A program made the position numbers and the translations under genes. This document shows positions 4,018 to 59,795 of a DNA stretch of 64,000 bases, in pieces. Under the pieces are notes generated by a model, which had not been told where the DNA came from, did not search any database, and worked only from the letters and a program-made list of their open reading frames with translations. The stretch is from contig JALOTZ010000006.1 of NCBI GenBank assembly GCA_025457615.1, positions 63,866-127,865 on the forward strand, in the 5' to 3' direction. The DNA comes from Verrucomicrobiota bacterium. GTDB lineage: Bacteria > Verrucomicrobiota > Verrucomicrobiia > Limisphaerales > DSYF01. How positions within the stretch are numbered: the first letter of the stretch is position 1; the number at the start of each line of letters is the position of its first letter.

Positions 4018-4230
4018 TCACTCTCATGATCGCTCGGCGCGCGGCTCCATGAGCCGCAGCACCCCCGCACCGGAGGGCCGTGTGCCATGATTCAGCGGCT
4101 TGGTGACCGGCGCGCCCCGGCTGCGGGTCACTCGTCCTGCGTAACAGGGCGCCTGCGCCCGTCCTCGGCCGTCGCCCTGCCACGGAGGATGGAGAGGATG
4201 AACAGCCCCGCGCTCCGAACTGAGCATGGC
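4018..4230. repeat. Palindromic intergenic repeat (family with core GCGCGGCTCCATGAGCCGCAGCACCCCCGC ... CTGCGGGTC ... CCGCGCTCC)
   Basis: The core GCGCGGCTCCATGAGCCGCAGCACCCCCGC is shared (one substitution in the 23.6-kb copy) with 23619-23650 and 59620-59650. The right arm CCCCGCGCTCCGAACTGAGCATGGC is analogous to 59716-59738. Confidence 0.6.
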
Positions 4231-5964: not shown

Positions 5965-6010
5965 CCAGCCACCACGGCCCGCGCCCGCATCGCGGATGCT
6001 GTGGCGTGTG

Positions 6011-6028
6011 TTGGGTGACGTTCTTGCG
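6011..6028 (+). promoter_or_regulatory. Candidate sigma-54 promoter for the giant secreted protein gene
   Basis: ttGGgtgacgttcTTGCg: GG at 6014-6015 and GC at 6026-6027 with exact GG-N10-GC spacing. The -12 TTGC is intact and the -24 box is imperfect. It lies 55 nt upstream of ATG 6083. Confidence 0.3.
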
Positions 6029-6082
6029 ACAGAGTCCGAAAACCCGATCTCAACCGAAGTCCATGACCAGGAGATTTTGAGC

Positions 6083-9000
6083 ATGAAGACCACCGGCCTT
6101 GTTCTTGCCGCCCTCCTCGCTGGCGCGGCCTCGTCGTCCGCAACCATCCTGTCCGTCACGGGCAATGACACCCTGGTCGGCAACCACACCACGAACCTGA
6201 TTCTCAACGGCAGTTTTGAGGCAGACGGGGGCGTGGTGTCCAACGGCGCCTACTGGGCCACCGGCACCACCCTGACGCCCGCCTTCTCGCTGACCTCCTG
6301 GAGCGCCTCCGGCCAGTCCGGCAGCTACGCGCACTGGGGCAACGACGGGCTGGGCGGCATCAAGGGCAGCGCCCCGCTTCCGCACGGCACCAACGCCCTC
6401 TACTTTGGCGCGGGGATCATGCTTCTAGTCGCTCCCTTCCCCATCGAAGCCACCAACGGCCTGGTCACGTTCACCTCCACCCCCGCCATCCTGCCCAAGC
6501 CCGGGGACGGCCCGGTGACCTTGCAGCAGACCGTTTCGGGCCTGAACCCCGCCGCCACCTACCTGCTGGATTTCTGGACCAGTGGGGAGGATGTCGGGAA
6601 GCCAGAGATGGCCGTGGACGGCTTCTTCGGCCTGGACATCACCGGCGAACCGACGCTCTACTTCGCCGCCCCGAGCGGGAACGGCCTGGTGGGCGCCTCC
6701 CAGCGCTACCAAGTCTATTTCACGCCGACGGCCTCGACGGTGACGTTTCAATGGAGCAATTGGGGCCACGATGTGGATCCCAACGGGTTCGCCGACGAAC
6801 TGGTGCTGGACGACATCATCCTGAACAAGATCTCCGGCCCGGAGGACCCGTTGCTGTGCGGCTGCCTGACGAACATCACCGTCACCTGTCCCGCCGTGCT
6901 CCCAGACCTGTGCGCCCTGGCCACGAACTGCTTCACCACGAACATGCTGCCGGGGTCCTGCACACAGAACCTCCCGCCTGGAATGCCGGTGTCCGTGGGC
7001 ACCTACGTCCTCAACCTGCAGGTGCTGGATCTCCAGAGCAACGCGTTCTCGTGTCCCGTGACGTTCACGGTGGTTCCGCCATCGAATGCGCCGCCGCTGA
7101 CCGTCCTCTGTTCCACGAACAAGACTGTCGAGTGTGGAAGCGAGTGGGACTTCGATCCGCCGGTCGTCACCTCGTTCTGCTGCGGGCTGACGATCACGCC
7201 GAACGACATCGTGGTGAGCAACAGCCCCTGTTCCCAGAGCCTCACCCGCACCTGGTTGATCACCGACGGCTGCGGCAACACCACCAGTTGCAGCCAGGAG
7301 GTGACCCTGGTGGACACCACGCCGCCGGGCACGCAATGTGACGGCCAGAACCTGGTGCCGAACGGCGGCTTCGAGCGCTACACCAACTGCCCCTCCTCCA
7401 TCTCGCAGTTCGCCTTCGCCGCGCCGTGGTTCACGCCGACCGACGCCACGACGGATTACTACAACAGTTGCTCCGGCGCCGGCTCGTTCGTCACCACGCC
7501 GACCAACAGCGTGGGCGTGCAGGCGCCGTTAAGCGGACAGGCCTACGCGGGCGCGGCGCTCTACACGACGTTCGGCACCAACCCCACCAATTCCTACCGG
7601 GAGTATCTCGAAGTGCCGCTGCTCACGAGCTTGACCGCCGGACAACAATACCTCGTGTCGTTTTACGTGAGCCGGGCGGAGTATTTCGGCCAGGCCATCG
7701 CGGACATCGGGGCGAAATTCTTCCCGATGCCATTCGTCAATTACGGCCCGTTGAGCAATGCCTACACAGGCGTGCTCGTGCACCCGATTCCCCCGCAGGT
7801 CGCCAATCCGCCGAGCAACATGCTCACCGACTCGACCAACTGGACGCTCATTCAGGGCCTGTACACCGCCATCGGCTGGGAAACGCACCTGGTCCTGGGC
7901 AATTTCAAGGATGACCCCGGCACCACCGCCACGCTGGTCGGGGGCCAGGACAACAACTACGCCTACTACTACTTTGACAACGTCTCGGTGGTCGCGGTGT
8001 GCGATCCAGCGATGACGAACCAGGTCGTGCAATGCGGCACGCCTTGGGAGATTCCGCCGTTCCCGGTCTTCGACAACTGCAACGGCGGCAACATCACCGT
8101 GTCAAACTACACCGCGACGAACGGGTATTGTCCCACGGTGGTGCAGCGCGACTGGTATCTGGCCGACCCCTGCGGGAACACGAACAGGTTCACCCAGACG
8201 GTGACCATCGTGGACACGAACCCGCCGCAGCTCCTGTGCGCCGCCGGGGCCAACCTGGCGCCCAATCCGCAGTTTGAAAACTACGCCTTCTGTCCCTTCA
8301 ACTTCTCGCAGGTGTCCGCTGCCGGGCCGTGGTTCAATCCGACCGTCGCCACGCCGGACTACCTGAACACCTGCTCCTCGTTCCCCGCCGCACAGGTGCC
8401 GAACAACCTGCTGGGCAGCCAGACCCCGTTCAGCGGCAATGGCTACATGGGCGCGTACGCCTACTCCGTTTACGGGACCAACCCGGTGCCCGGCTACCGC
8501 GAGTATCTCGAGGCGCCCCTGCTTGTCCCGTTGCAGGCGGGCCAGCAGTACCAGGTTTCCTTCCGTGTCTGCCTGGCCGACACGTCCGGCTGGTCCATCA
8601 GCGATCTGGGCGCGCATTTCTCTGTCGGCCCAGTGCTGAACGGCTCGAGCGAAGGGCCCTTGAACGTCGTCCCGCAGGTTGCCAATCCGCCCGGTAACCT
8701 GCTCACCAACCAGACCGGTTGGATGCTCGTGCAGGGCGTGTTCACCGCGGCGGGCGGCGAGGACCACATCACGCTCGGCAATTTCCTCGATGACGCCTCC
8801 ACCCTGGCGGTGACCAACGCGTCCGGCACCAACCACACGTATTACTACTACGACGACATCGCGGTCGTGCCGTTGTGCGAGTTCACGAACAAATTCGTGG
8901 CCTGCGAGTCCGTGTGGGAATTTGACACGCCGCTGGCCTACGACAGTTGCAGCGGCGAATACCTCTCCACCTTCGTCACCAGCACGACGACCAGCGGCAC

Positions 9001-12000
9001 CTGCCCGAAGGTCCACACCCGGATCTGGACGATCTACGATGCCTGCAACAACTGGATCACCGCCACGCAGACGGTCACGGAGGTGGACACGGTGCCGCCC
9101 GAACTGCTGTGTTCCGGCCTGAACTTGGTGCCGAACGCAGATTTCGAGAACACGTTCCAGTGTGCCGGCGCCTTGTCGTTCCTGCCGTTCGCCCAACCCT
9201 GGTTTCAGCCCACGATCGGCAGCCCGGATCTCTACAACCCCTGCGCCACGCTCGCCTCCGGCGCTTCCGTGCCGGTGAACATGTTCGGTTCGCAAACACC
9301 CTTCGCCGGCCAGAACTACGCGGGCGGTTATGTCTATTTCCCAGGCGGGGCGGGAACGAACTCCTACCGCGAATACCTCACCGCGCCGCTGTTCGCGCCC
9401 CTCGTGGCGGGGCAATCCTACGCCGTTTCCTTCCGCGTGAGCCGCGGGGACAACTGTGCTTACGCGGCGGCGGAGATCGGCGCGCATTTCTCCGCCGGCC
9501 CGCTCACGAATTACCCCGGCAGCTACCTTGCGGCCACGCCGCAGATCGTCAACCCCCCGGCCAACGTCATCACGTCAGCCACCAACTGGACCCTGATCTC
9601 CGGTGTGCTCACCGCGGGCGGCGGCGAGGATTACATCACGATCGGCAACTTCCTCACCGATGCCAGCACCACCGCCTCGTTCCTCGGCGGGTCGATCAAC
9701 TCAGCCTATTACTACTACGACGACGTGCGGGTCATCGCGCTCTGCACCAATGTTCCGGTCAAGACCGTGGCCTGCGGCGAGCCGTGGGAATTCGATCCCG
9801 CGCCCCTGGCCGTGGATCGTTGCGCCGGCAGCAACGTGACCGTCACGCTCGCCGGCACGATCACGAACAGCCTGTGCCCGGTCAACGTGGTCCGCACCTG
9901 GACCCTCGCCGACGCGTGCGGCAACGCGACCAACTGGAGTCAGACGATCCTCGCCCTGACCAACGGCAGCGTGTTGGCGGTGAACTGCGAGTGCCTGCTG
10001 GACAACGCGCTCGCGCTGCTCACCACGAACGCGTGCCAGGCCGCCGTGCCGGACCTTTCCGGGCTCTCGAACTCGCCGTGCATCCTCAATAACTGCGGCG
10101 CGATCCAGATCACCCAGTCACCAGCGCCGGGAACGCCTGTCGGCGCGGGCAGCCACCCCATTACCGTGCGGATTTCCAATTGCGCCGGGCTCACGAACAC
10201 GTGCGTCCTGCCCTTCTACGTGAACCCGCCGCAACCGACCCTCACCTGCCCGCCGAACCTCGTCGTTTACGGTTGCAGCAACAACTCCGCGGTCGTGAAC
10301 TACGCGGCCACCGCGACCGGCCATGTCGGCCCGATCCTCTACTCGCCGCCGTCTGGAAGCCTCTTCAGTCTGGGCACCCACACCGTCACCTGCACGGCCA
10401 CGAACCTTTGCGGCGGGGCCAACACCTGCACGTTCACGGTCACCGTCCGACCACCGCACCGGAAGTGGGGTTGTCTGACCAAGATCATCGGCATCATCAG
10501 CTATCCGCCGCCGGTGGGCCGGGTGATTTACCGGCCCGACTTCCCCGGCGGCGGTCGGGGCGTGGACCTTGCCGATTTCAGCGGCACGGAAGGGGTGCGC
10601 TTCGACCTCGGCCCGGCGGAGAAGTTCACGTTCAGCACGATGCTGGACTTCGACGCGCCCACGAACGCGAGTTTTGAACTGCACCTGCCGCCCGGCGCGG
10701 GGCTGCCCACCAGCACGCCGCTGGTCCGCTTCGAGCGCAGTTGCGAGGTGCATTGCGGCTGGGACGTCAAGCTGGGCGCACAGATTGTCAGCGATCCGAC
10801 CGCCACCTTCCGGGCCGCCGCCATCAATCTGAACGGGGAACTGCTCGATTCCGTCACTGTCCCGCACGCCAGCCTCGGAACGAACGTCTTCGCCAGCCTG
10901 TCGCCCATGGATGGCTCGACCAACGGGCTGATGACCGTGACGTTCGACCTGCGCACGCGGTCGATCGCGCTGGAGTTTCCATCCGGGGATTTCATGCCGT
11001 CGGCCCGGCACAAGGGTTGGGACGGGTGCATTTACGGCAACCGCCCACCGCGCACCACCAAGACCAACCATGCCGCGCGGGTCATCATCACGCCGCAGCC
11101 CCCCCTGCCCCCGCCCCCGATCACCGAACTCAGCCTGGCGATCAGCAACCTCGCCACGCTCGCGTTCGACAATCCGGCCATCACCATGTCCGGCCGCAAA
11201 TGGAGCGACGGTCATGTGACCTTGATGAAGGCCTACGACGACGGGTCCGAGAGCGGCATGGAATTCTCCGCGCTCGGCGCCAGCGGAGGGCTGGACGCCG
11301 AACTGGGCCACGCCGCGAGCTTCTCGCTTCGCCTGACGTCGCTCGACACCAACGGCCTGCCGCTGCTGGAACAGCAGTTCGCCATCCGTGGCTGGCCGCC
11401 GGGCACCACGACAAACCGCCCTCCGCCCCCGGTCATCAACGTGCGCCTCGCCCCCGACAACAGCGGCCTGGGCGGTGTGCAACTCGGCGCGGACCTGGTG
11501 GATTGGGGCGTGTCCGAAGTCACGCTGCAACTCTGGGACGGGCCGACGCTTGTGGCCGAGACGAACCACGTTCCGGCCATGCCCGGCGGCACGCTCGCGA
11601 TGTTGGGTGGGTTCCCGGGAATTCTCGGCTGCCCCGGCGTGGGTGTGGTGAGCTTGTCCGACACCAATCCGATCATCGTCCTGAGCGGCCTGGACTGCGG
11701 CACGCTCGGCTGTGTCGGCACCGAACTGCGCATCCTCGCCGAGACGTCCACGATGTCCACCCCGCCAACGGCCTACACCGATCTCACCGCCACCATCGGC
11801 GAGGAAATGGATTACCTGATCCACGACCTGCAAAGCGCGCCCGCCTGCGTGGTGGCACCCTTGCAAGTCGCACGGGGCGCCAACAGCGTCACGTTGAGTT
11901 GGGAAGGCGACGGCTTCCACTTGCAGGGCGCGGAAAGCGTCAGCGGACCGTGGTATGACCTGGGGGTCGAATCCCCGGCCACCATCCCGGCCGGTTCCGC

Positions 12001-12031
12001 CACCCGCGTGTTCCGGCTTCGCTGCGATTAA
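6083..12031 (+). CDS. Giant secreted adhesin-like protein (1982 aa): jelly-roll/CBM-like modules alternating with Cys-rich HYR-type modules, one canonical HYR domain, unknown C-terminal region
   Basis: Track ORF 5996..12031. ATG 6083 is preceded by GGAG and followed by the signal peptide MKTTGLVLAALLAGAASSSA. Repeated motifs: NLVPNGGFE..C, YREYLE.PL...L.AGQ.Y.VSF.V, YYYYDD(I/V).V. Cys-rich units end in RTW...D.CGN.....Q.VT..DT.PP. HYR-like unit: LTCPPNLVVYGC...GTHTVTCTATNLCGGANTCTFTVTVRPP. Confidence 0.85.
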   Translation: MKTTGLVLAALLAGAASSSATILSVTGNDTLVGNHTTNLILNGSFEADGGVVSNGAYWATGTTLTPAFSLTSWSASGQSGSYAHWGNDGLGGIKGSAPLPHGTNALYFGAGIMLLVAPFPIEATNGLVTFTSTPAILPKPGDGPVTLQQTVSGLNPAATYLLDFWTSGEDVGKPEMAVDGFFGLDITGEPTLYFAAPSGNGLVGASQRYQVYFTPTASTVTFQWSNWGHDVDPNGFADELVLDDIILNKISGPEDPLLCGCLTNITVTCPAVLPDLCALATNCFTTNMLPGSCTQNLPPGMPVSVGTYVLNLQVLDLQSNAFSCPVTFTVVPPSNAPPLTVLCSTNKTVECGSEWDFDPPVVTSFCCGLTITPNDIVVSNSPCSQSLTRTWLITDGCGNTTSCSQEVTLVDTTPPGTQCDGQNLVPNGGFERYTNCPSSISQFAFAAPWFTPTDATTDYYNSCSGAGSFVTTPTNSVGVQAPLSGQAYAGAALYTTFGTNPTNSYREYLEVPLLTSLTAGQQYLVSFYVSRAEYFGQAIADIGAKFFPMPFVNYGPLSNAYTGVLVHPIPPQVANPPSNMLTDSTNWTLIQGLYTAIGWETHLVLGNFKDDPGTTATLVGGQDNNYAYYYFDNVSVVAVCDPAMTNQVVQCGTPWEIPPFPVFDNCNGGNITVSNYTATNGYCPTVVQRDWYLADPCGNTNRFTQTVTIVDTNPPQLLCAAGANLAPNPQFENYAFCPFNFSQVSAAGPWFNPTVATPDYLNTCSSFPAAQVPNNLLGSQTPFSGNGYMGAYAYSVYGTNPVPGYREYLEAPLLVPLQAGQQYQVSFRVCLADTSGWSISDLGAHFSVGPVLNGSSEGPLNVVPQVANPPGNLLTNQTGWMLVQGVFTAAGGEDHITLGNFLDDASTLAVTNASGTNHTYYYYDDIAVVPLCEFTNKFVACESVWEFDTPLAYDSCSGEYLSTFVTSTTTSGTCPKVHTRIWTIYDACNNWITATQTVTEVDTVPPELLCSGLNLVPNADFENTFQCAGALSFLPFAQPWFQPTIGSPDLYNPCATLASGASVPVNMFGSQTPFAGQNYAGGYVYFPGGAGTNSYREYLTAPLFAPLVAGQSYAVSFRVSRGDNCAYAAAEIGAHFSAGPLTNYPGSYLAATPQIVNPPANVITSATNWTLISGVLTAGGGEDYITIGNFLTDASTTASFLGGSINSAYYYYDDVRVIALCTNVPVKTVACGEPWEFDPAPLAVDRCAGSNVTVTLAGTITNSLCPVNVVRTWTLADACGNATNWSQTILALTNGSVLAVNCECLLDNALALLTTNACQAAVPDLSGLSNSPCILNNCGAIQITQSPAPGTPVGAGSHPITVRISNCAGLTNTCVLPFYVNPPQPTLTCPPNLVVYGCSNNSAVVNYAATATGHVGPILYSPPSGSLFSLGTHTVTCTATNLCGGANTCTFTVTVRPPHRKWGCLTKIIGIISYPPPVGRVIYRPDFPGGGRGVDLADFSGTEGVRFDLGPAEKFTFSTMLDFDAPTNASFELHLPPGAGLPTSTPLVRFERSCEVHCGWDVKLGAQIVSDPTATFRAAAINLNGELLDSVTVPHASLGTNVFASLSPMDGSTNGLMTVTFDLRTRSIALEFPSGDFMPSARHKGWDGCIYGNRPPRTTKTNHAARVIITPQPPLPPPPITELSLAISNLATLAFDNPAITMSGRKWSDGHVTLMKAYDDGSESGMEFSALGASGGLDAELGHAASFSLRLTSLDTNGLPLLEQQFAIRGWPPGTTTNRPPPPVINVRLAPDNSGLGGVQLGADLVDWGVSEVTLQLWDGPTLVAETNHVPAMPGGTLAMLGGFPGILGCPGVGVVSLSDTNPIIVLSGLDCGTLGCVGTELRILAETSTMSTPPTAYTDLTATIGEEMDYLIHDLQSAPACVVAPLQVARGANSVTLSWEGDGFHLQGAESVSGPWYDLGVESPATIPAGSATRVFRLRCD
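7346..9970 (+). repeat. Three tandem ~290-aa protein-coding repeat units inside the giant gene
   Basis: Units start at 7346 (QNLVPNGGFERY), 8249 (ANLAPNPQFENY) and 9119 (LNLVPNADFENT). Each is a ~200-aa jelly-roll-like module followed by a ~75-aa Cys-rich module. Confidence 0.8.
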
Positions 12032-12297
12032 CGAGGCTGGCCGAATGGATGGCGGGATCAGCCCGCGCGCAGGAACGCCTCCACCTTGACCTGGATGGTG
12101 GATTCCGAGCCGGGGACGCTCAACACGTCGCAGTCACGGCCCAGGATGGACAGGAGCAGGCGGCCTGCGACTGGGTCGTGGGCTTCGGGAGCTTTGTGGC
12201 TGCTGCGGGTCGCGGACCCGTGCTCCAGACTGAGAATGGCTGTTTTGCCGCGCTGGAAGATTGCGTCGCCACCGTCCCTCGGGCAAAACTGGGGCCC

Positions 12298-13158
12298 ATG
12301 CCGACGACACCCCATCCATCCTCGCGTTCCCAGGTCCTGCTGGTGGAATGTGATGACCGCCGTGGGCTCGTCCATGCCATCACCGGCGTCCTGCTGCGGC
12401 ACGGCGTCAACGTGGTGGGCAACCAGGAGTTTGTGGACCGCGGCTCGGGGCGCTTTTTCATGCGCACCGAGTTCGACGGCGAGGTGGATGCCGGACGGCT
12501 CGAAACCGAGGCCCGGCAGGCGTTGCCGGAGGGTGCGCGGGTGCGGCTTAGCGACCTGAAACCCAAGCGTGTGGTGGTGCTGGCCTCCAAGGAGCACCAT
12601 TGCCTGGGCGACATCCTGGTCCGGCACGCCTACGGCGAACTCAATGCCCGGGTGCTGGCGGTGCTCGCCAATCATCCCGTCCTGGAACCGCTGGTGGCCC
12701 GGTTTGATCTCCCGTTCCATTGCCTCAGCCACGAATCCCTCTCGCGCCCCGAGCACGAGGCCGCCCTGCTCGGGATCCTCGAACCGCTCCAGCCGGACTA
12801 CCTGGTCCTGGCCAAATACATGCGGGTGTTGTCCCCGGACTTCGTCGCCCGGTTCCCGGCGCGCATCCTGAACATTCACCATTCCTTCCTGCCGGCCTTT
12901 GCCGGCGCCAAGCCGTACCAGCAGGCGTTTGATCGCGGCGTCAAGGTCATCGGCGCCTCGGCGCATTTCGTCACCGACAAGCTGGACGAAGGCCCGCTGA
13001 TCGTGCAGCAGGTCATTCCGGTGGACCACACGCACACGGCGCATGACCTGTCGCAAGCCGGGCGTGATGTCGAGCAGATGGTGCTGGCCCGCGCGTTGCG
13101 CCTGGTGTTCGAGGACCGCGTGTTCCTGTGCGGCAACCGCACGGTGATTTTCGATTGA
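12298..13158 (+). CDS. purU: Formyltetrahydrofolate deformylase
   Basis: N-terminal ACT-like domain (VLLVECDDRRGLVHAITGVLLRHGVNV) plus a formyltransferase core (ILNIHHSFLPAFAGAKPYQQA, GASAHFVTDKLDEGPLI). Start at M84 of track ORF 12049..13158. Confidence 0.9.
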   Translation: MPTTPHPSSRSQVLLVECDDRRGLVHAITGVLLRHGVNVVGNQEFVDRGSGRFFMRTEFDGEVDAGRLETEARQALPEGARVRLSDLKPKRVVVLASKEHHCLGDILVRHAYGELNARVLAVLANHPVLEPLVARFDLPFHCLSHESLSRPEHEAALLGILEPLQPDYLVLAKYMRVLSPDFVARFPARILNIHHSFLPAFAGAKPYQQAFDRGVKVIGASAHFVTDKLDEGPLIVQQVIPVDHTHTAHDLSQAGRDVEQMVLARALRLVFEDRVFLCGNRTVIFD

Positions 13159-15448: not shown

Positions 15449-15473
15449 CGGATGCGCACAGCGACGGCGGCCG

Positions 15474-15637
15474 GGGGTGCATCTGGACACTGCCCCCCGG
15501 CACGCGGCCTTCAGGCCGCTTCCACGTCCGAAGGGCACTCGATGAAACGCTTGTTCCGCGGGCTTGCGAATGCTGAAGCGGCATCAATGCCGCGCCCCGG
15601 CCGGAATTGCGTTCGAGGACAGTGTCGAGATGCACCT
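15474..15637 (+). mobile_element. MITE-like element, copy A (164 bp)
   Basis: Terminal inverted repeats GGGGTGCATCTGGACACTGCC / GGACAGTGTCGAGATGCACCT. Flanked on both sides by GGCGGCCG (15466-15473 and 15638-15645). Near-identical copies at 38585 and 44073. Confidence 0.7.
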
Positions 15638-15777
15638 GGCGGCCGCGCGACCGAAATCCAGCTTTGACAGGGGGCGGGGCGGGAGGCAAGCTGACGACAC
15701 ATTTGGACCGCGCGTTCGCGGATTTGAACAGCCGGCACGTCGCCGGCTGATTTGTTAAGGGAGCAGACAATCGAATT

Positions 15778-23334: not shown

Positions 23335-23790
23335 TGTCGGCGCTCCACGACTCTGCTCTCGCCCGCAGCCATTCTCAGTCAGCGCCGGAGCCCGGCTCCG
23401 CGAGCCGCATCGCCGGCGCAGGTGCCGGTGGCTTGCGATCAGGTTGTAGGCGTCAGGAGAGCAGCACGGCTGCTGCGAGTCGCGGACTCGCGTTCCGTTG
23501 TGGGGGCGCGGCTCCGTGAGCCGCAGCGGCGGCGAGAGTGTAGGAGACCTTCGGATTAGAGATGGGCTTCTGGAGCAGCGTGGCTGCTGCGGGTCATGGA
23601 CCCGCGGTCCGTTGTGGGGGCGCGGCTCCGTGAGCCGCAGCACCCCCGCCACGGAAGGCCGTTCTCAATCTTCCAGTAGCCTGCTTCCAGGCGAAGCGGC
23701 TGCGGGTCGCCCGTCCTCCGTAGCAGAGCCACTGCGGAGGGTGGACGGACCCGCGCTCCCACATGAGAGTGCCGTCTCGCCCGTCCGGCC
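23335..23790. repeat. Cluster of palindromic REP-like units filling the 519-bp spacer
   Basis: Direct 60-nt units at 23468-23527 and 23582-23641 (114-nt period), each GGCTGCTGCG.GTC...GTTGTGGGGGCGCGGCTCCGTGAGCCGCAGC. Followed by a full copy of the 59602-59735-type element with an extra internal hairpin at 23708-23748. Confidence 0.75.
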
Positions 23791-36402: not shown

Positions 36403-38562
36403 ATGGCTCGAGCGGAACAACCTTTGGGACCGGAACATTTCATCAACCGCGAGTTGAGCTGGCTGGAGTTCAACCAGCGGGTGCTGGACGAGGCAATCCA
36501 CCCGGAAACCCCGCTGCTGGAGCGGCTCAAATTCTTCTGCATCACCAGCTCCAACCTGGATGAATTCTTTGAGGTCCGGGTGGCGGGCGTCAAACAGCAG
36601 ATCGAGAGTGAGGTGGTCGAGCGCAGCGTGGACGGACTGACCGCCACCGAGGCATTCCGGGCGATGGCCCGCCGGGTGCGGCAGATGGTGGACCTTCAAT
36701 ACACCCTCTGGCGGACGCAACTGGCGCCCGCACTGGCCCGCAACGGCATCCGCATTCTCAAGGTCAACCATCTCAAGGGTCCGGACCGGCAGTGGGTGGA
36801 CAACTATTACCAGTCGGAAGTGCTGCCGGTGCTGACCCCGCTGGCGATCGACCCCGCTCATCCCTTTCCCCAGCTCCTCAACAAATCGCTCAACATCATC
36901 CTGCAACTGGAGAAGAAGGAGGGCAAAAAGGTCCTGCGCTACCAGGCCGTGGTGCAGGTGCCGCGGAACCTGCCCCGATTGATCCAACTGCCCCGGGAGA
37001 ATGGACGGATGGACTTCGTGCTGCTCGGCGATTTGATCGGGTCGCGCCTCGAGGATCTGTTCGTGGGCACCACGATCCGCGGACACTGGCTGTTCCGGGT
37101 CACCCGCAACAGCGAGTTGTATGTGGACGAGGAGGATTCCGCCAACCTGCTCAAGGCGGTGGAAACCGAGCTTCACAACCGGCGCAAGGGCGAGGCGGTG
37201 CGGCTCGAGGTGGAAAAGGGCTGTCCGCACGTCGTCCTGGGCGCCCTGCGCAACACGCTGCGGCTGGCCGAGGATGATGTCTATGTCATCGACGGCCCCC
37301 TGGCTCCCCAGGGACTCATGAAGGCCTATCAGGGCGACCATTCGCCCGAGTTGCGCGACGCTCCGTTCGTGGCGCCGGTGGCCCCGGCCCTCGAGCACCG
37401 CGATGACCTGTTCGCCGCCATCCGCGAGCGGGACATCCTGCTGCATCACCCCTACGAAAGCTTCAACAGCGTCGTGGGGTTCCTCGAACAAGCCGCCGCC
37501 GACCCCCGGGTCCTGGCCATCAAGCAAACCCTCTATCGCACCGGCGGCGACCTCCGCATCATCGGCGCCCTGATGAACGCGGTGAAAAAGGGCAAGCAGG
37601 TCACGGCGGTGGTCGAGTTGCGCGCGCGGTTCGACGAGGCCAACAACATCCAGTGGGCCCGGCACCTCGAGGAGAACGGCGTGCACGTGGTCTATGGCCT
37701 GGTCGGCTACAAGATCCACGCCAAGGCCAGCCTCGTGGTCCGCCGGGACGACGACGGCATCCGCCGCTACGTCCATCTGGGCACCGGCAATTACAATCCC
37801 AGCACCGCGCGGCTCTACACCGACCTGGGCCTGCTGACCTGCAAATCCGAGTTCGGCGAGGACGTGACCAACCTGTTCAACCTGCTCACCGGCATCTGCC
37901 AGTACCAGGGATCCCACAAACTCCTGGTGGCGCCCTTCGACCTGCAGAAGCGCATCCTCGAGCACATCGAGCGGGAAATCGCCCATGCCCGGCAGGGGCT
38001 GCCGTCCCGGATCATGGCCAAGCTCAACTCCCTCGTGGACCCGGTGGTGATCGCCGCGCTCTATCGCGCCTCGCAGGCCGGAGTCCGCATCGACCTCATC
38101 GTGCGCGGGACGTGCTGCCTGCGGCCCGGATGGCCCGGGGTGAGCGAGAACATTACCGTGCGCAGCATTGTGGACCGTTTCCTGGAACACCCGCGCATCT
38201 TTTACTTCGAGAACGCCGCCCGGCCGCAGGTGTACTTGAGCAGTGCTGACTGGATGCCGCGCAACTTCTACCGCCGCATCGAGACGGCGTTCCCCATCGA
38301 GGACGGGGTCCTGCGTGAGCGCGTCATCAACGAGATCCTGGCGATCAGCTTTTCCGACAACGTCAAGGCGCGGCGCCTGAAGCCCGACGGCCTCTATCAT
38401 CTCCCGAAACCCGGTCCCGGGGAAGCAGCCCGGCGCAGCCAGTCCGAGTTCATGGCGCTGGCCTTGGAAAGAAGCGCGGACCGCAAACGGAAGGTGCCGA
38501 CCGAACCGGCCTTGAAGCGACTCCAGGTGCTGACCCAGCCGCCCCTGACGGGAGTCAAGTAA
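36403..38562 (+). CDS. ppk: Polyphosphate kinase 1
   Basis: FINRELSWLEFNQRVLDEA N-terminus. HAKASLVVRRD and the overall block order match PPK1. Alternative start 36385. Confidence 0.9.
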   Translation: MARAEQPLGPEHFINRELSWLEFNQRVLDEAIHPETPLLERLKFFCITSSNLDEFFEVRVAGVKQQIESEVVERSVDGLTATEAFRAMARRVRQMVDLQYTLWRTQLAPALARNGIRILKVNHLKGPDRQWVDNYYQSEVLPVLTPLAIDPAHPFPQLLNKSLNIILQLEKKEGKKVLRYQAVVQVPRNLPRLIQLPRENGRMDFVLLGDLIGSRLEDLFVGTTIRGHWLFRVTRNSELYVDEEDSANLLKAVETELHNRRKGEAVRLEVEKGCPHVVLGALRNTLRLAEDDVYVIDGPLAPQGLMKAYQGDHSPELRDAPFVAPVAPALEHRDDLFAAIRERDILLHHPYESFNSVVGFLEQAAADPRVLAIKQTLYRTGGDLRIIGALMNAVKKGKQVTAVVELRARFDEANNIQWARHLEENGVHVVYGLVGYKIHAKASLVVRRDDDGIRRYVHLGTGNYNPSTARLYTDLGLLTCKSEFGEDVTNLFNLLTGICQYQGSHKLLVAPFDLQKRILEHIEREIAHARQGLPSRIMAKLNSLVDPVVIAALYRASQAGVRIDLIVRGTCCLRPGWPGVSENITVRSIVDRFLEHPRIFYFENAARPQVYLSSADWMPRNFYRRIETAFPIEDGVLRERVINEILAISFSDNVKARRLKPDGLYHLPKPGPGEAARRSQSEFMALALERSADRKRKVPTEPALKRLQVLTQPPLTGVK

Positions 38563-38584
38563 CCTGACCACCCCGGGGTTCCTT

Positions 38585-38747
38585 GGGTGCATCTGGGCAC
38601 TGCCCCCGGAGCGCGGCCTTCAGGCCCGCTTCAACGTCCGAAGGGCACGCGATGAAACGCTCGTTCGGCGGGCTGGCGAATGCTGAAGCGGCATGAATGG
38701 CGCGCCCCGGCCAGAATTGCGTTCGAGGGCAGTATCAAGATGTACCC
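38585..38747 (+). mobile_element. MITE-like element, copy B (163 bp)
   Basis: Ends GGGTGCATCTGGGCACTGCC ... GGCAGTATCAAGATGTACCC. Flanked by a perfect 8-bp direct repeat GGTTCCTT (38577-38584 and 38748-38755). Lies 22 nt after the ppk stop. Confidence 0.75.
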
Positions 38748-38780
38748 GGTTCCTTCGCACCACCCCGGACCGACCATCCC

Positions 38781-43305: not shown

Positions 43306-43799
43306 AGGCGGACAGCAGACCACCAAACCGCCTGCAAATCAATGCTCAAGACGAGCGCGGACGGGCCGGGCGGCAACGGGTGTGATTGAAAGTGGGTGAG
43401 GGGAATGGGTGGAAAAGAAGCAGAAGCCCCAAGGGATGGAAGTCACCCTTCCAGCCCAAGCGCTCTTGGAGTGCGGTGGGAAGGGAGGGACGATCGCCTG
43501 CCCGCCCTAGCCCTTCTGGCGACGGCGGGCCACGCCGCTTGTTCGACGGCACTGGGGGCGAGCGAACACTCCACAGCCCTTCGAAAAGCGCCGTCGCCGC
43601 TGTCCACCCTCCGCCGCAGCCCTGCTACGGAGGACGGGTGCTCTGCCGGCGCAGTCCACCAAAGCACACCACCCCCCGCCAGTGGATCTCACCCACTCTT
43701 AAGCACACCTGGCGGCAACACCGGTGCGCTCAAACACATCTCGCACCAGACCCTGTTCATCCATTACGGCGAACTCCGGCGCAGCACGGCACCCCCACA

Positions 43800-43830
43800 T
43801 AAAAAAAGCCGGACCCATGACAGGTCCGGC
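43800..43830 (-). terminator. Rho-independent terminator of the small lipoprotein gene
   Basis: GCCGGACC / GGTCCGGC 8-bp stem, 7-nt loop, followed on the minus strand by TTTTTTT (43801-43807). Lies ~40 nt after the stop at 43873. Confidence 0.8.
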
Positions 43831-43872
43831 CTGATTCAATTTCGCTCGTCTGTTCCTAAGCCCCAACAAAAA

Positions 43873-44001
43873 CTAGGGAGCCTTGGGAGCGTCCGGGGCC
43901 TCAGGGGTCGCTGGCGGTGTCGGTTCCTGCTTCTTCTCGCATCCGGTAAACAACACCACCGACGCCAGAGCCACCATGATCGTTGCAATGAATGTCTTCA
44001 T
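43873..44001 (-). CDS. Small putative lipoprotein (42 aa), absent from the ORF track
   Basis: MKTFIATIMVALASVVLFTGCEKKQEPTPPATPEAPDAPKAP: signal peptide with a lipobox-like LFTG|C, Pro-rich tail, and a dedicated terminator downstream. Confidence 0.6.
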   Translation of the reverse strand: MKTFIATIMVALASVVLFTGCEKKQEPTPPATPEAPDAPKAP

Positions 44002-44039
44002 AACGGGCTTACGCTCGCGTGAATTCGAACCGAAAGCAA

Positions 44040-44054: not shown

Positions 44055-44072
44055 AAGGTTGCCCGGCACCCG

Positions 44073-44243
44073 GGGGTGCATCTGGACACTGCCCCGGGGC
44101 GCGGCTCTTCAGGCCGCTTCAACGTCCGAAAGGGCACGCGATGAAACGCTTGTTCCTCGGGCTTGCGAAGGCTGAAGCGGCATGAATGCCGCGCCCCCGT
44201 CAGAAGCCAGAATTGCGTTCAAGGGCAGTGTCAAGACGCACCC
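44073..44243 (+). mobile_element. MITE-like element, copy C (171 bp)
   Basis: Ends GGGGTGCATCTGGACACTGCC ... GGCAGTGTCAAGACGCACCC. Flanked by GCACCCG (44066-44072 and 44244-44250). Carries a 7-nt internal insertion relative to copies A and B. Confidence 0.7.
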
Positions 44244-44307
44244 GCACCCGTCCGCATCCACAGCCGTTCTTGCCACGGGGGCATCCCGTCGCCCAAGCTG
44301 GCGTCCC

Positions 44308-45960
44308 TTGAAGGCATGGCTTGACTCGGTCTGGAGACGCAGTCGCTACCCGCATGCGGCGGCGGCGGGCGTCCTGCTGGCGCTGGCCTTCCCCAATGCG
44401 CAGATCGCCGGCCTGGCCTGGGTGGCGCCGGCACTGATCCTGGGCCTGGCCGCAGCCACCGACCTCCGACAAGCCTTCCGCATCGGCTATGTCGCCGGAC
44501 TGGCCTACCACCTGACCTCGCTCTCCTGGCTGCTGCTCATCCCGGTGCACCTCTTCCCTATCTTGGGCTGGCTGGCGCTGAGCGCTTACCTCTCGCTGTT
44601 CACGGCGGTCTGGGTCTGGGGCGCCTGGCGGCTTTGGCCCGGAGGCACGGGTTCGACACAAGGCAACGGGCAACCGATGGAACCCCTTCCCATCGCCTGG
44701 CCAGGCTGGACCCGCCGCGCGGCCTGGATGATCGGGGTGGCGGCACTGTGGGTCGGGCTCGAAACGCTGCGCGCCCGGTTGCTTGGGGGCTTCCCTTGGA
44801 ATCCCCTGGGCGCTTCCCAGTTTGAACTGGTTCCTTTGCTGCACCTCTCGAGGCTCACCGGGGTCTATGGCCTCTCCTTCCTCGTGATCTGGTTTTCCGC
44901 GGGCCTGACCTGCGCGGGCTTGGGATTGCTGCAAGCGCGCCCGGGCCGCCGGGCCGGACTGGCGGACGTTGCCCTCCCACTGCTGGTCATTGCGACCGCG
45001 TTTGCGTGGGGACTGCATGAAATCCGGTCCGCCTCCAATCCAATCCGGCAACTCAAAGTCGCGGTGATCCAACCCAGCATCCCGCAGACCGAAATCTGGG
45101 ATCCGGCGGAGAACGAAGCGCGCTTCGCCGAGGTGATCCGGCTTTCCCAAGAAGCCTTGACGACGCAACCCGACCTGCTGCTCTGGCCGGAAGCCGCCGT
45201 GCCGACGCTGCTGCGCTGGGACGAACCCACCTACACCGCCATCACCAGCCTCGCCCGTTCCAACCAGGTCTGGATGATCATTGGCGCGGACGATGCCATT
45301 CCCGGGCCGACCCCGGACGAGGAGGTCAGCTACTTCAACAGTGCCTGGCTGATCGGGCCGGATGGCGAGATCCGCGCCACCTATCGCAAACAGCAGTTGG
45401 TGGCATTCGGCGAAGAGGTGCCGTTCCGTCGCTGGCTGCCCTTCCTGAAATGGTTCACCCCCATCACCGGCGCCTTCACGCGCGGGACGGGGTTTGTGCC
45501 CTTTGTCATGGAGAGCCTCGAAGCCGAAACCAGCATCCTCATCTGTTTTGAAGACGTCTTCCCTCACCTGGCGCGCAAGGGGGTCGGGGCCGGAACGGAC
45601 TTCCTTGTCAACCTGACCAATGACGGATGGTTCCGGGAAGGGTCGGCGCAACGTCAACAGGCCGCCAATGCAGTGTTCCGCGCCGTGGAAAACGGCGTGC
45701 CGTTGGTGCGCTGCACCAACAACGGCCAGACCTGCTGGGTGGATCCCTTCGGACGAATCGTCGAAACCTTCACCGATGACGCGGGGCACCTCTACGGCGC
45801 GGGTTGGACCCTCTTCTCGGTCTCGATCCCGGATCGGGGGCCCCAGGGCGCCACCTTCTACAACCGCCGTGGGGATGTGTTCGGCTGGATGTGCGTTGCC
45901 GTCGGAGCTGGAGCGTTGTTGCGGCTCTGGAGGCGGCGCGATCCGGCCGCGGATTCCTGA
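44308..45960 (+). CDS. lnt: Apolipoprotein N-acyltransferase
   Basis: N-terminal polytopic region (AAAGVLLALAFPN...). C-terminal CN-hydrolase domain (LLLWPEAAVP, ILICFEDVFP). The track start ATG 44182 lies inside the MITE, so in-frame TTG 44308 is proposed. Start uncertain. Confidence 0.8.
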   Translation: MKAWLDSVWRRSRYPHAAAAGVLLALAFPNAQIAGLAWVAPALILGLAAATDLRQAFRIGYVAGLAYHLTSLSWLLLIPVHLFPILGWLALSAYLSLFTAVWVWGAWRLWPGGTGSTQGNGQPMEPLPIAWPGWTRRAAWMIGVAALWVGLETLRARLLGGFPWNPLGASQFELVPLLHLSRLTGVYGLSFLVIWFSAGLTCAGLGLLQARPGRRAGLADVALPLLVIATAFAWGLHEIRSASNPIRQLKVAVIQPSIPQTEIWDPAENEARFAEVIRLSQEALTTQPDLLLWPEAAVPTLLRWDEPTYTAITSLARSNQVWMIIGADDAIPGPTPDEEVSYFNSAWLIGPDGEIRATYRKQQLVAFGEEVPFRRWLPFLKWFTPITGAFTRGTGFVPFVMESLEAETSILICFEDVFPHLARKGVGAGTDFLVNLTNDGWFREGSAQRQQAANAVFRAVENGVPLVRCTNNGQTCWVDPFGRIVETFTDDAGHLYGAGWTLFSVSIPDRGPQGATFYNRRGDVFGWMCVAVGAGALLRLWRRRDPAADS

Positions 45961-59601: not shown

Positions 59602-59735
59602 ATTCTCATTTTGGCCCGGAGCGCGGCTCCATGAGCCGCAGCACCCCCGCCACGGAAGGCCGTTCTCAATCTTCCAGTGGCTTTGTTCCAGGCGAAGCTG
59701 CTGCGGGTCGCGGACCCGCGCTCCAAAATGAGAAT
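59602..59735. repeat. 134-bp long-hairpin repeat element (same family as 4018 and 23335 clusters)
   Basis: Ends ATTCTCATTTTGG / CCAAAATGAGAAT are perfect inverted repeats. Internal arm pairs GAGCGCGG..TCC/GGACCCGCGCTC and CCGCAGCA/TGCTGCGG. Confidence 0.75.
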
Positions 59736-59795
59736 GGCTGCAGGGGCCATGGCCCCGTTTGACTTCGCCCCCTGTGCCGCTAGATTCGACGGGCC

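Follow-up and report, generated by a model that had tools for sequence, protein, structure and literature searches.

Prokaryotic Mutator-like elements have inverted repeats (IRs) of 18-39 bp, and on insertion the target is duplicated over 8 or 9 bp (Guerillot et al., 2014; PMC3942029). Insertions of the TnGBS/ISLre2 family, like those of 13 ISKra4-group members, lie a set distance upstream of sigmaA promoters, and the published spacing between the IR end and the -35 box is 14-18 bp for ISLre2/ISKra4 elements (PMC3942029). The IRs of these 13 ISKra4-group insertion sequences, which include ISAcce1, ISCasp2 and ISCasp3, are near-identical, and promoters are accordingly found on either side of the element (PMC3942029). 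The promoter-upstream targeting of TnGBS and ISLre2 elements is thought to limit damage to the host (PMC3942029). Five ISKra4-group entries of Table S1 in the same work were compared here. Their tips are GGGTGCATTTAA in ISAcce1 (start GGGTGCAT), GGGTGCAGTCG in ISBeg3 (start GGGTGCAG), GGGTGCGACTC in ISCasp2 and GGGTGCGGCTC in ISCasp3 (both starting GGGTGCG), and GGGCGTAGCC in ISAcas3; a 9-bp duplication is recorded for ISAcas3, ISAcce1, ISCasp2 and ISCasp3, and none is recorded for ISBeg3 (PMC3942029, Table S1). Bacterial MITEs, in the definition given in a report on such an element, are small, about 50-600 bp, and lack a transposase or other coding capacity (PMC6382973).

A 64,000-nucleotide stretch of DNA from a Verrucomicrobiota bacterium (the window) has three copies of a short repeat, here termed A, B and C (Table 1). 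A sequence-only reading of the window had listed three co-oriented copies; all are present, with the starts of A and C set as tabulated. Copy A is found 3′ of the M3 peptidase gene and 5′ of PFK, copy B between the convergent ppk and histidine-phosphatase genes, and copy C upstream of lnt. The distances reported earlier between stop codons and copies were reproduced, at 25-26 nt past the M3 peptidase stop and 22 nt past the ppk stop. Sequence identity is 89.6% between A and B and 86.0% between A and C as well as between B and C. At 163-170 bp the copies fall within the size range of bacterial MITEs, and none has coding capacity, the overlapping open reading frames being spurious run-throughs.

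The ends of the copies are terminal inverted repeats (TIRs), as had been proposed, with 20-nt arms that match at 16-18 of 20 positions. When the window is searched with the TIR 20-mer GGGTGCATCTGGACACTGCC, allowing up to three mismatches, the six matches obtained are exactly the six element ends, where shuffled sequence is expected to give 0.02. The left TIRs of copies A-C are nearer to the consensus of the superfamily described below (0, 1 and 0 mismatches) than are the right TIRs (3, 3 and 2). Position 11 of the right TIR shows a G-to-T or G-to-C change in all three copies; this may be chance, with only three copies, or a feature of a founding copy.

Table 1. Coordinates of the repeat copies, their flanking duplications and the neighbouring promoter-like sequences in the window
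Feature	Position	Strand	Sequence	Remarks
MITE copy A	15475-15637 (15474 with an extra G counted)	+		163 bp
Copy A left TIR	15475-15494			arms match 17/20
Copy A right TIR	15618-15637			arms match 17/20
Copy A left duplication	15466-15474		GGCGGCCGG	as a 9-mer; 8/9 against right
Copy A right duplication	15638-15646		GGCGGCCGC	first 8 bases same as left
MITE copy B	38585-38747	+		163 bp
Copy B left TIR	38585-38604			arms match 16/20
Copy B right TIR	38728-38747			arms match 16/20
Copy B left duplication	38577-38584		GGTTCCTT	identical to right
Copy B right duplication	38748-38755		GGTTCCTT	
MITE copy C	44074-44243	+		170 bp; 7-nt internal insertion
Copy C left TIR	44074-44093			arms match 18/20
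Copy C right TIR	44224-44243			arms match 18/20
Copy C left flanking repeat	44066-44072		GCACCCG	shifted by one base relative to a 9-bp duplication
Copy C right flanking repeat	44244-44250		GCACCCG	identical to left
Predicted PFK promoter, beside copy A	15664-15692	+		26 nt past right tip
PFK -35 box	15664-15669	+	TTGACA	
PFK -10-like box	15687-15692	+	CAAGCT	
Predicted lnt promoter, beside copy C	44270-44299	+		26 nt past right tip
lnt -35 box	44270-44275	+	TTGCCA	
lnt -10-like box	44294-44299	+	CAAGCT	
-35-like hexamer, beside copy B	38553-38558	-	TTGACT	26 nt past left tip; within last ppk codons

The TIR is not confined to the window. Scans with it gave 13 loci in a genome collection and 23 in metagenomes; the genome loci are mostly from Verrucomicrobiota MAGs (Limisphaerales, Verrucomicrobiia), and the metagenome contigs carry no taxon label. 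Similarity to the window element is limited to the terminal 20-35 nt, the cores are unrelated, and element sizes range from 77 to 265 bp. The TIR GGGTGCATCTGGACACTGCC defines a superfamily of elements with unrelated cores. Neither the TIR nor a core motif had a match in scans of viral contigs, and blastn of copy B against plasmids gave chance-level matches only. A search of the literature for the TIR sequence, for MITEs in Verrucomicrobia and for ISKra4-derived MITEs found nothing relevant. Two superfamily cores (L004, about 59-300; L028, about 737-960) contain GTAG-headed hairpins of the REP type (GTAGCGGCGGGCATCCTTGCCTGCCGT...), which suggests that the MITE cores pick up or nest other repeats.

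Direct repeats that differ between copies had been described at the three insertions, and these are found: 8 bp at copy A (8/9), 8 bp at copy B and 7 bp at copy C. At copy A the 8-mer GGCGGCCG flanks both sides (15466-15473 and 15638-15645). Within the superfamily, 21 non-redundant complete TIR-bearing elements could be compared. In four of these the 9-nt flanks are identical (TGGCAGTTT in L003, CTGCTGGAG in L008, GTTCCGCCG in L009 and TTTTCGCCC in L022), and three further elements match at 8/9, 7/9 and 6/9 positions. An additional 8/9 match is found in L036. As none of 420 mismatched control pairs matches at more than 6/9, the four perfect cases indicate that the typical duplication of the superfamily is 9 bp. 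The repeats in the window are either 8-bp duplications or slightly decayed 9-bp ones, and lengths of 7-8 bp fit copies that have diverged from one another by 10-14%.

The elements have a fixed relation to promoter-like sequences. Outward sequence was taken from 51 non-redundant ends of 33 elements, selected by the TIR alone. The trinucleotide TTG is present at offset 26 or 27 beyond the tip in 18 of the 51 ends, with 1.7 expected (binomial p 2.9e-14), and with the window copies left out it is still present in 14 of 45 ends (p 1.5e-10). In an unbiased scan of all trinucleotide/offset combinations, TTG at offset 27 ranks top. Both ends of the element face TTG about equally often (left 12/33, right 6/18), and at least one end is positive in 10 of 18 complete elements. 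Hexamers were scored as -10-like if at least four of six positions matched and positions 2 and 6 were A and T; one is found 16-18 nt after the TTG in 5 of the 18 cases, against a background of 1.9% after TTG generally (p 1.8e-5). All three copies in the window have a TTGACA-like hexamer exactly 26 nt past one tip.

Conservation in relatives that lack the element marks the hexamers at copies A and C as parts of real host promoters. The TTGACA and the PFK leader are kept in three relatives (L040-L042), and of these L041 and L042 are without an element at this site. Similarly, L045-L047, all of which are without the element, retain TTGCCA-N17/18-CAAGCT/CAATCT and, after it, the TTG start of lnt. 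The hexamer at copy B has no good -10 sequence after it and is not conserved in relatives, and therefore is probably a promoter look-alike; it is oriented antisense into ppk. An independent case of the 26-nt spacing is provided by L040, where a 119-bp element of a different family (12190-12308, tips GGGTGTG/GGGCGTG) lies upstream of the orthologous PFK -35 box, its end exactly 26 nt away, and thus occupies the same promoter-relative spot as copy A. This element is a relative of a 333-bp MITE that is also present in the window. In L040 about 130 further nt lie between the 119-bp element and the M3 peptidase stop, possibly an older element that was pushed upstream.

At the orthologous sites the element is absent from relatives, although the relatives compared are only about 80-87% identical in protein, and about 83% in ppk DNA. 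Four relatives are without the element at the ppk site, where the intergenic spacer measures 13 bp in both L038 and L039, 3 bp in L044 and 112 bp in L037. The M3-peptidase/PFK site is unoccupied in L041 and L042, and in alignment A3 copy A stands out as a clean block of about 170 inserted nt, with the M3 peptidase stop on one side and the strongly conserved PFK leader on the other. The site upstream of lnt lacks the element in L045 to L048. Thus the search for unoccupied orthologous sites that had been suggested earlier gave such sites for all three copies. No copies or TIRs are found in 169 kb from 12 loci of the relatives. The presence/absence pattern is that of a mobile element and not of a conserved RNA.

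The tips of the element point to a possible source of mobility. The element begins GGGTGCATCTGG, and its tip GGGTGCAT agrees base for base with ISAcce1 in Table S1 of PMC3942029; GGGTGC is the start of four of the five ISKra4-group entries compared there. The GGGTGC tips, IRs within the range of 18-39 bp that end in C, and a 9-bp repeat, the last found in the superfamily, agree with those entries as far as they were compared. A fixed distance upstream of sigmaA-type promoters, on either side of the element, is also found (18/51 ends). However, the spacing peaks at 26-27 and not at the published 14-18 bp, where TTG shows no excess (5 observed against 4.3 expected at offsets 14-18), and the similarity of the tips to ISKra4 is limited to 6-8 nt. 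The window copies, with 7-8-bp and not clean 9-bp duplications, also count against an ISKra4-driven explanation. We infer descent from an ISKra4 element (p-MULT 4). An ISKra4-type Mutator-like transposase is on balance the likelier driver, judged from tip sequence, length of the duplication, symmetry of the IRs and association with promoters.

An autonomous element or an ISKra4-like transposase was looked for in the window, in the 36 TIR-bearing loci and in the 12 loci of relatives, and none was found. In particular, tblastn with three N-terminal fragments of ISKra4-group proteins gave no match in any of these sequences. No transposase Pfam domain is present among 39 open reading frames of the window, in agreement with the earlier statement that the window lacks a transposase, and the region at about 17-19.8 kb has no Pfam match in the frames tested. 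The matches of the TIR scans include short elements and solo ends only, with no full-length insertion sequence. The open reading frames that adjoin the TIRs are those of housekeeping genes (sulfatase, radical SAM/MiaB-like, GTP cyclohydrolase, ABC transporter and others), with no transposase among them. An ATG directly after the TIR in L017 was considered as a possible transposase start, but the frame runs into REP-like hairpins and the ATG was taken to be incidental. Kinship of the TIR with IS256, ISL3, IS1595 and Tn3 was also considered; in tips, duplication length or promoter association these fit less well than ISKra4. The ends of Escherichia coli IS1 match at 12/19 positions and were dropped as a poorer fit than ISKra4.

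The copies could be read as functional structured RNA or as regulatory DNA under selection, such as a terminator, a hairpin that stabilizes RNA, a small RNA or a REP-like site for protein binding. Their folds are stable on both strands (-80 to -86 kcal/mol; z -3.9 to -4.8), stop codons are found only a short way 5′ of copies A and B, and co-transcription would be expected if the upstream genes read through. The minimum-energy fold of copy B is a single long imperfect hairpin that spans the element on both strands, and that of copy A is branched and closed by its paired termini. Two internal hairpins noted previously do exist, but GCGGCC-TTCA-GGCCGC is perfect only in copy A and GCGGCA-TSAA-TGCCGC only in copies A and C. 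Against a selected structure, compensatory changes are absent from all 61 pairs that RNAalifold predicts for the three copies, substitutions break the pairing at 12 pair positions, and covariation contributes an unfavourable term of +2.89. Rfam gives no match at the gathering score for the whole window and none at E<=1 around copy B. Neither a sigma-70-like promoter inside the copies nor a U-tract terminator in or at copies A-C was found. The only terminator-like hairpin near copy A (15729-15749) is part of the conserved PFK leader. The earlier suggestion that the copies prefer gene 3′ ends or were co-opted as terminators is thus not supported, and the positioning follows the downstream promoter instead. 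In addition, orthologous positions lack the element, superfamily cores are unrelated with the termini alone kept, and flanking duplications are not expected for such elements. The possibility that a selected RNA had been mistaken for a mobile element, which the sequence-only reading had itself raised, finds no support in compensatory changes or in occupancy of orthologous sites. A selected RNA or DNA function is thus very improbable, and the copies themselves are probably without host function.

A mobile element could have other drivers. A MITE may be moved by another family that makes 8-9-bp duplications, such as IS256, IS1, the IS903 group of IS5 or ISLre2, with promoter proximity reflecting no more than the survival of harmless intergenic insertions. 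No parent element is found in the window or in the 48 loci, duplications of 8 or 9 bp are common to all prokaryotic Mutator-like families (PMC3942029), and the spacing is unequal to the published one. On the other hand, purifying selection alone cannot place one trinucleotide at one or two exact offsets in 35% of ends, and insertions of IS256 show no promoter association (PMC3942029). The tips of ISLre2-family members in the published entries available (GAGCGTATAAAG, GAGCGT, GTCCGTG, GTTAGTG and GATCGTG, most of them reconstructed from the IR columns) and those of ISAzba1 differ from GGGTGC. Such a driver is therefore unlikely, though less so than a selected RNA. An inverted-repeat architecture is also that of a REPIN-type doublet spread by a RAYT (an IS200/IS605-type tyrosine transposase), and REP-like hairpins are abundant in the window and present inside some superfamily cores. 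REP elements are not known to make target duplications. With its GGGTGC tips and its 8-9-bp duplications, the element does not fit REPs or REPINs, as REP elements typically have GTAG/CGTC heads (see also PMC3733652), and this origin is the least credible of all.

The repeats A-C are, with little doubt, a MITE, given their size, TIRs, duplications, copy number, patchy occurrence and lack of selection for RNA structure. The earlier description of a non-autonomous MITE family is upheld by the TIRs, the duplications, the multiple copies, the non-coding sequence, the lack of covariation and the unoccupied orthologous sites. The best explanation overall, and one we consider probable, is that these are ageing MITE copies inserted at a set distance from promoters, most likely by an ISKra4-type driver. 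In the mechanism proposed, a DDE transposase supplied in trans would bind TIRs of about 20-24 bp (GGGTGCATCTGGACACTGCC[A/C]C[C/T]G) and insert the element through an 8-9-bp staggered cut, which would leave the flanking duplication. The target would be non-random: with the cut placed 17-18 bp ahead of a -35 hexamer of the sigma-70 type, TTG would begin 26-27 nt from the tip, and either end of the element could face the promoter. Copies would thereby accumulate just upstream of promoters and do little damage (PFK for copy A, lnt for copy C). The transposase would most likely be a Mutator-like enzyme of the ISKra4 group. The spacing may reflect active targeting, for example by contact with promoter-bound RNA polymerase; survival alone is insufficient because the spacing is base-exact. 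The chances are about even that this is a promoter-homing MITE family of Verrucomicrobiota served by an undescribed ISKra4-like transposase that reads the -35 region or its bound RNA polymerase and cuts 17-18 bp upstream.

The second MITE family of the window is represented at 43378-43710 by the 333-bp element, which has ISKra4-like tips, TIRs GGGTGTGATTGAAAGTGGGTGAG and AGGTGTGCTTAAGAGTGGGTGAG that match at 19/23 positions, and a perfect 9-bp duplication, GGCGGCAAC (43369-43377 and 43711-43719). It has TTGAGC 28 nt past its left tip, facing an HMGL-like gene. A 208-aa open reading frame (43396-44022) that overlaps this MITE has no Pfam hit and thus is probably spurious. The 5′ leader of PFK (about 15655-15777) has hardly changed among relatives, although their coding DNA is only about 80% identical. 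It consists, in order, of TTGACA, TTGGACCGCGCGTTCGCGG, a hairpin CAGCCGGCAcgtcGCCGGCTG, ATTTGTTAAGGGAGCAGACAATCGAATT and the ATG, and L042 has changes within the hairpin. This leader could be an attenuator or a leader RNA of a new type; it has no Rfam match. The hexamer CAAGCT is found at the -10 position of both PFK and lnt, with CATGCT and CAATCT in relatives, and may represent an unusual -10 consensus in this lineage.

The longest lnt open reading frame (592 aa) begins at an ATG inside copy C (44182-44310 region). Annotation and homologues place the lnt start at TTG 44308, which is 8 nt past the putative -10 sequence. This short gap may mean that the mRNA is leaderless or that the start lies further downstream. 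REP-like GC-rich hairpin repeats (GCTGCTGCGGGTCGCGGACCCGCG...; GGCGCGGCTCCATGAGCCGCAGCACCCCCGCC...) are present at 4036-4129, 12158-12242, 23459-23771 and 59618-59740, and this family includes a 114-nt tandem pair at 23459-23641. Within a 2011-aa open reading frame (5996-12031), the segment at 7300-9750 holds a tandem array of three units of about 870-900 bp, with 60-87% identity.

These MITEs have practical consequences for annotation. They create false open reading frames and false starts, as with the 592-aa lnt frame from copy C and the 208-aa frame over the second MITE, and copies could disrupt metagenomic assemblies. The base-exact distance to -35 boxes offers a map of promoters drawn from sequence only for Verrucomicrobiota, a phylum in which promoters have hardly been mapped. 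If the spacing rule holds, each copy is a natural tag of a promoter, and for PFK and lnt the window suggests a promoter type TTGnCn-N17/18-CAAGCT. Promoter-targeted DDE transposition, so far on record for ICEs of streptococci and a small number of IS families, would be extended to MITEs and to a new phylum. Any model of transposase docking, whether on the promoter or on RNA polymerase, has to account for the spacing shift of about 10 bp. If the proposal is true, the transposase is a candidate tool for gene-sparing, promoter-adjacent integration.

Several small bacterial repeats resemble the element in part. Correia elements of Neisseria and the ERIC/IRU sequences of enterobacteria are intergenic, about 100-160 bp and largely palindromic, as is the element here. 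They are co-transcribed with their neighbours and can form long hairpins, and Correia elements duplicate TA, unlike the element here. Neither group shares these TIRs, and neither is known to have a fixed distance from -35 boxes. Tn3-derived miniature elements (TIMEs) have IRs of about 38 bp that begin GGGG and a 5-bp duplication; the element here, with a duplication of 8-9 bp and IRs of about 20-24 nt, is not one of them. MITEAba12 of Acinetobacter (113 bp) is similar in its short imperfect TIRs, non-coding core, 9-bp duplication and presumed parent acting in trans, according to the part of its report compared (PMC6382973). It differs in its proposed parent, ISAba12, and in being AT-rich (78%), and that part of the report gives no fixed promoter spacing (PMC6382973). 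Transposition of MITEAba12 has been seen experimentally (PMC6382973), whereas the element here is known from its sequence alone.

Plant Pack-MULEs and MULE-derived MITEs are likewise non-autonomous Mutator derivatives and prefer gene 5′ ends, as discussed in PMC3942029. They are eukaryotic and much larger, however, and often carry gene fragments. Their duplications are about 9 bp, and a base-exact promoter spacing is not known for them. Among prokaryotic elements, the TnGBS ICEs and ISLre2 insertion sequences (p-MULT 3) share with the element a DDE mechanism, 8-9-bp duplications and a target upstream of -35 boxes. Their insertion is oriented, with IR-right beside the promoter, whereas the element here uses both ends. 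Their spacing is 15-16 bp compared with 26-27 here, and they are large and autonomous.

The ISKra4 group is closest. It shares GGGTGC(A/G) tips, a 9-bp repeat in four of the five entries compared and near-perfect IRs of 18-31 bp in those entries, as well as a constant position upstream of sigmaA promoters, which are found beyond either end of the element (PMC3942029). The phyla listed for p-MULT 4 do not include Verrucomicrobiota (PMC3942029). The element here differs from the ISKra4 group in lacking a transposase, in its length of only 163-170 bp and in a tip-to-(-35) distance of 26-27 nt against the published 14-18 (PMC3942029). Compared with the TnGBS, ISLre2 and ISKra4 elements described so far, the element here lies about 10 bp, or one turn of the helix, farther upstream of the -35 box.
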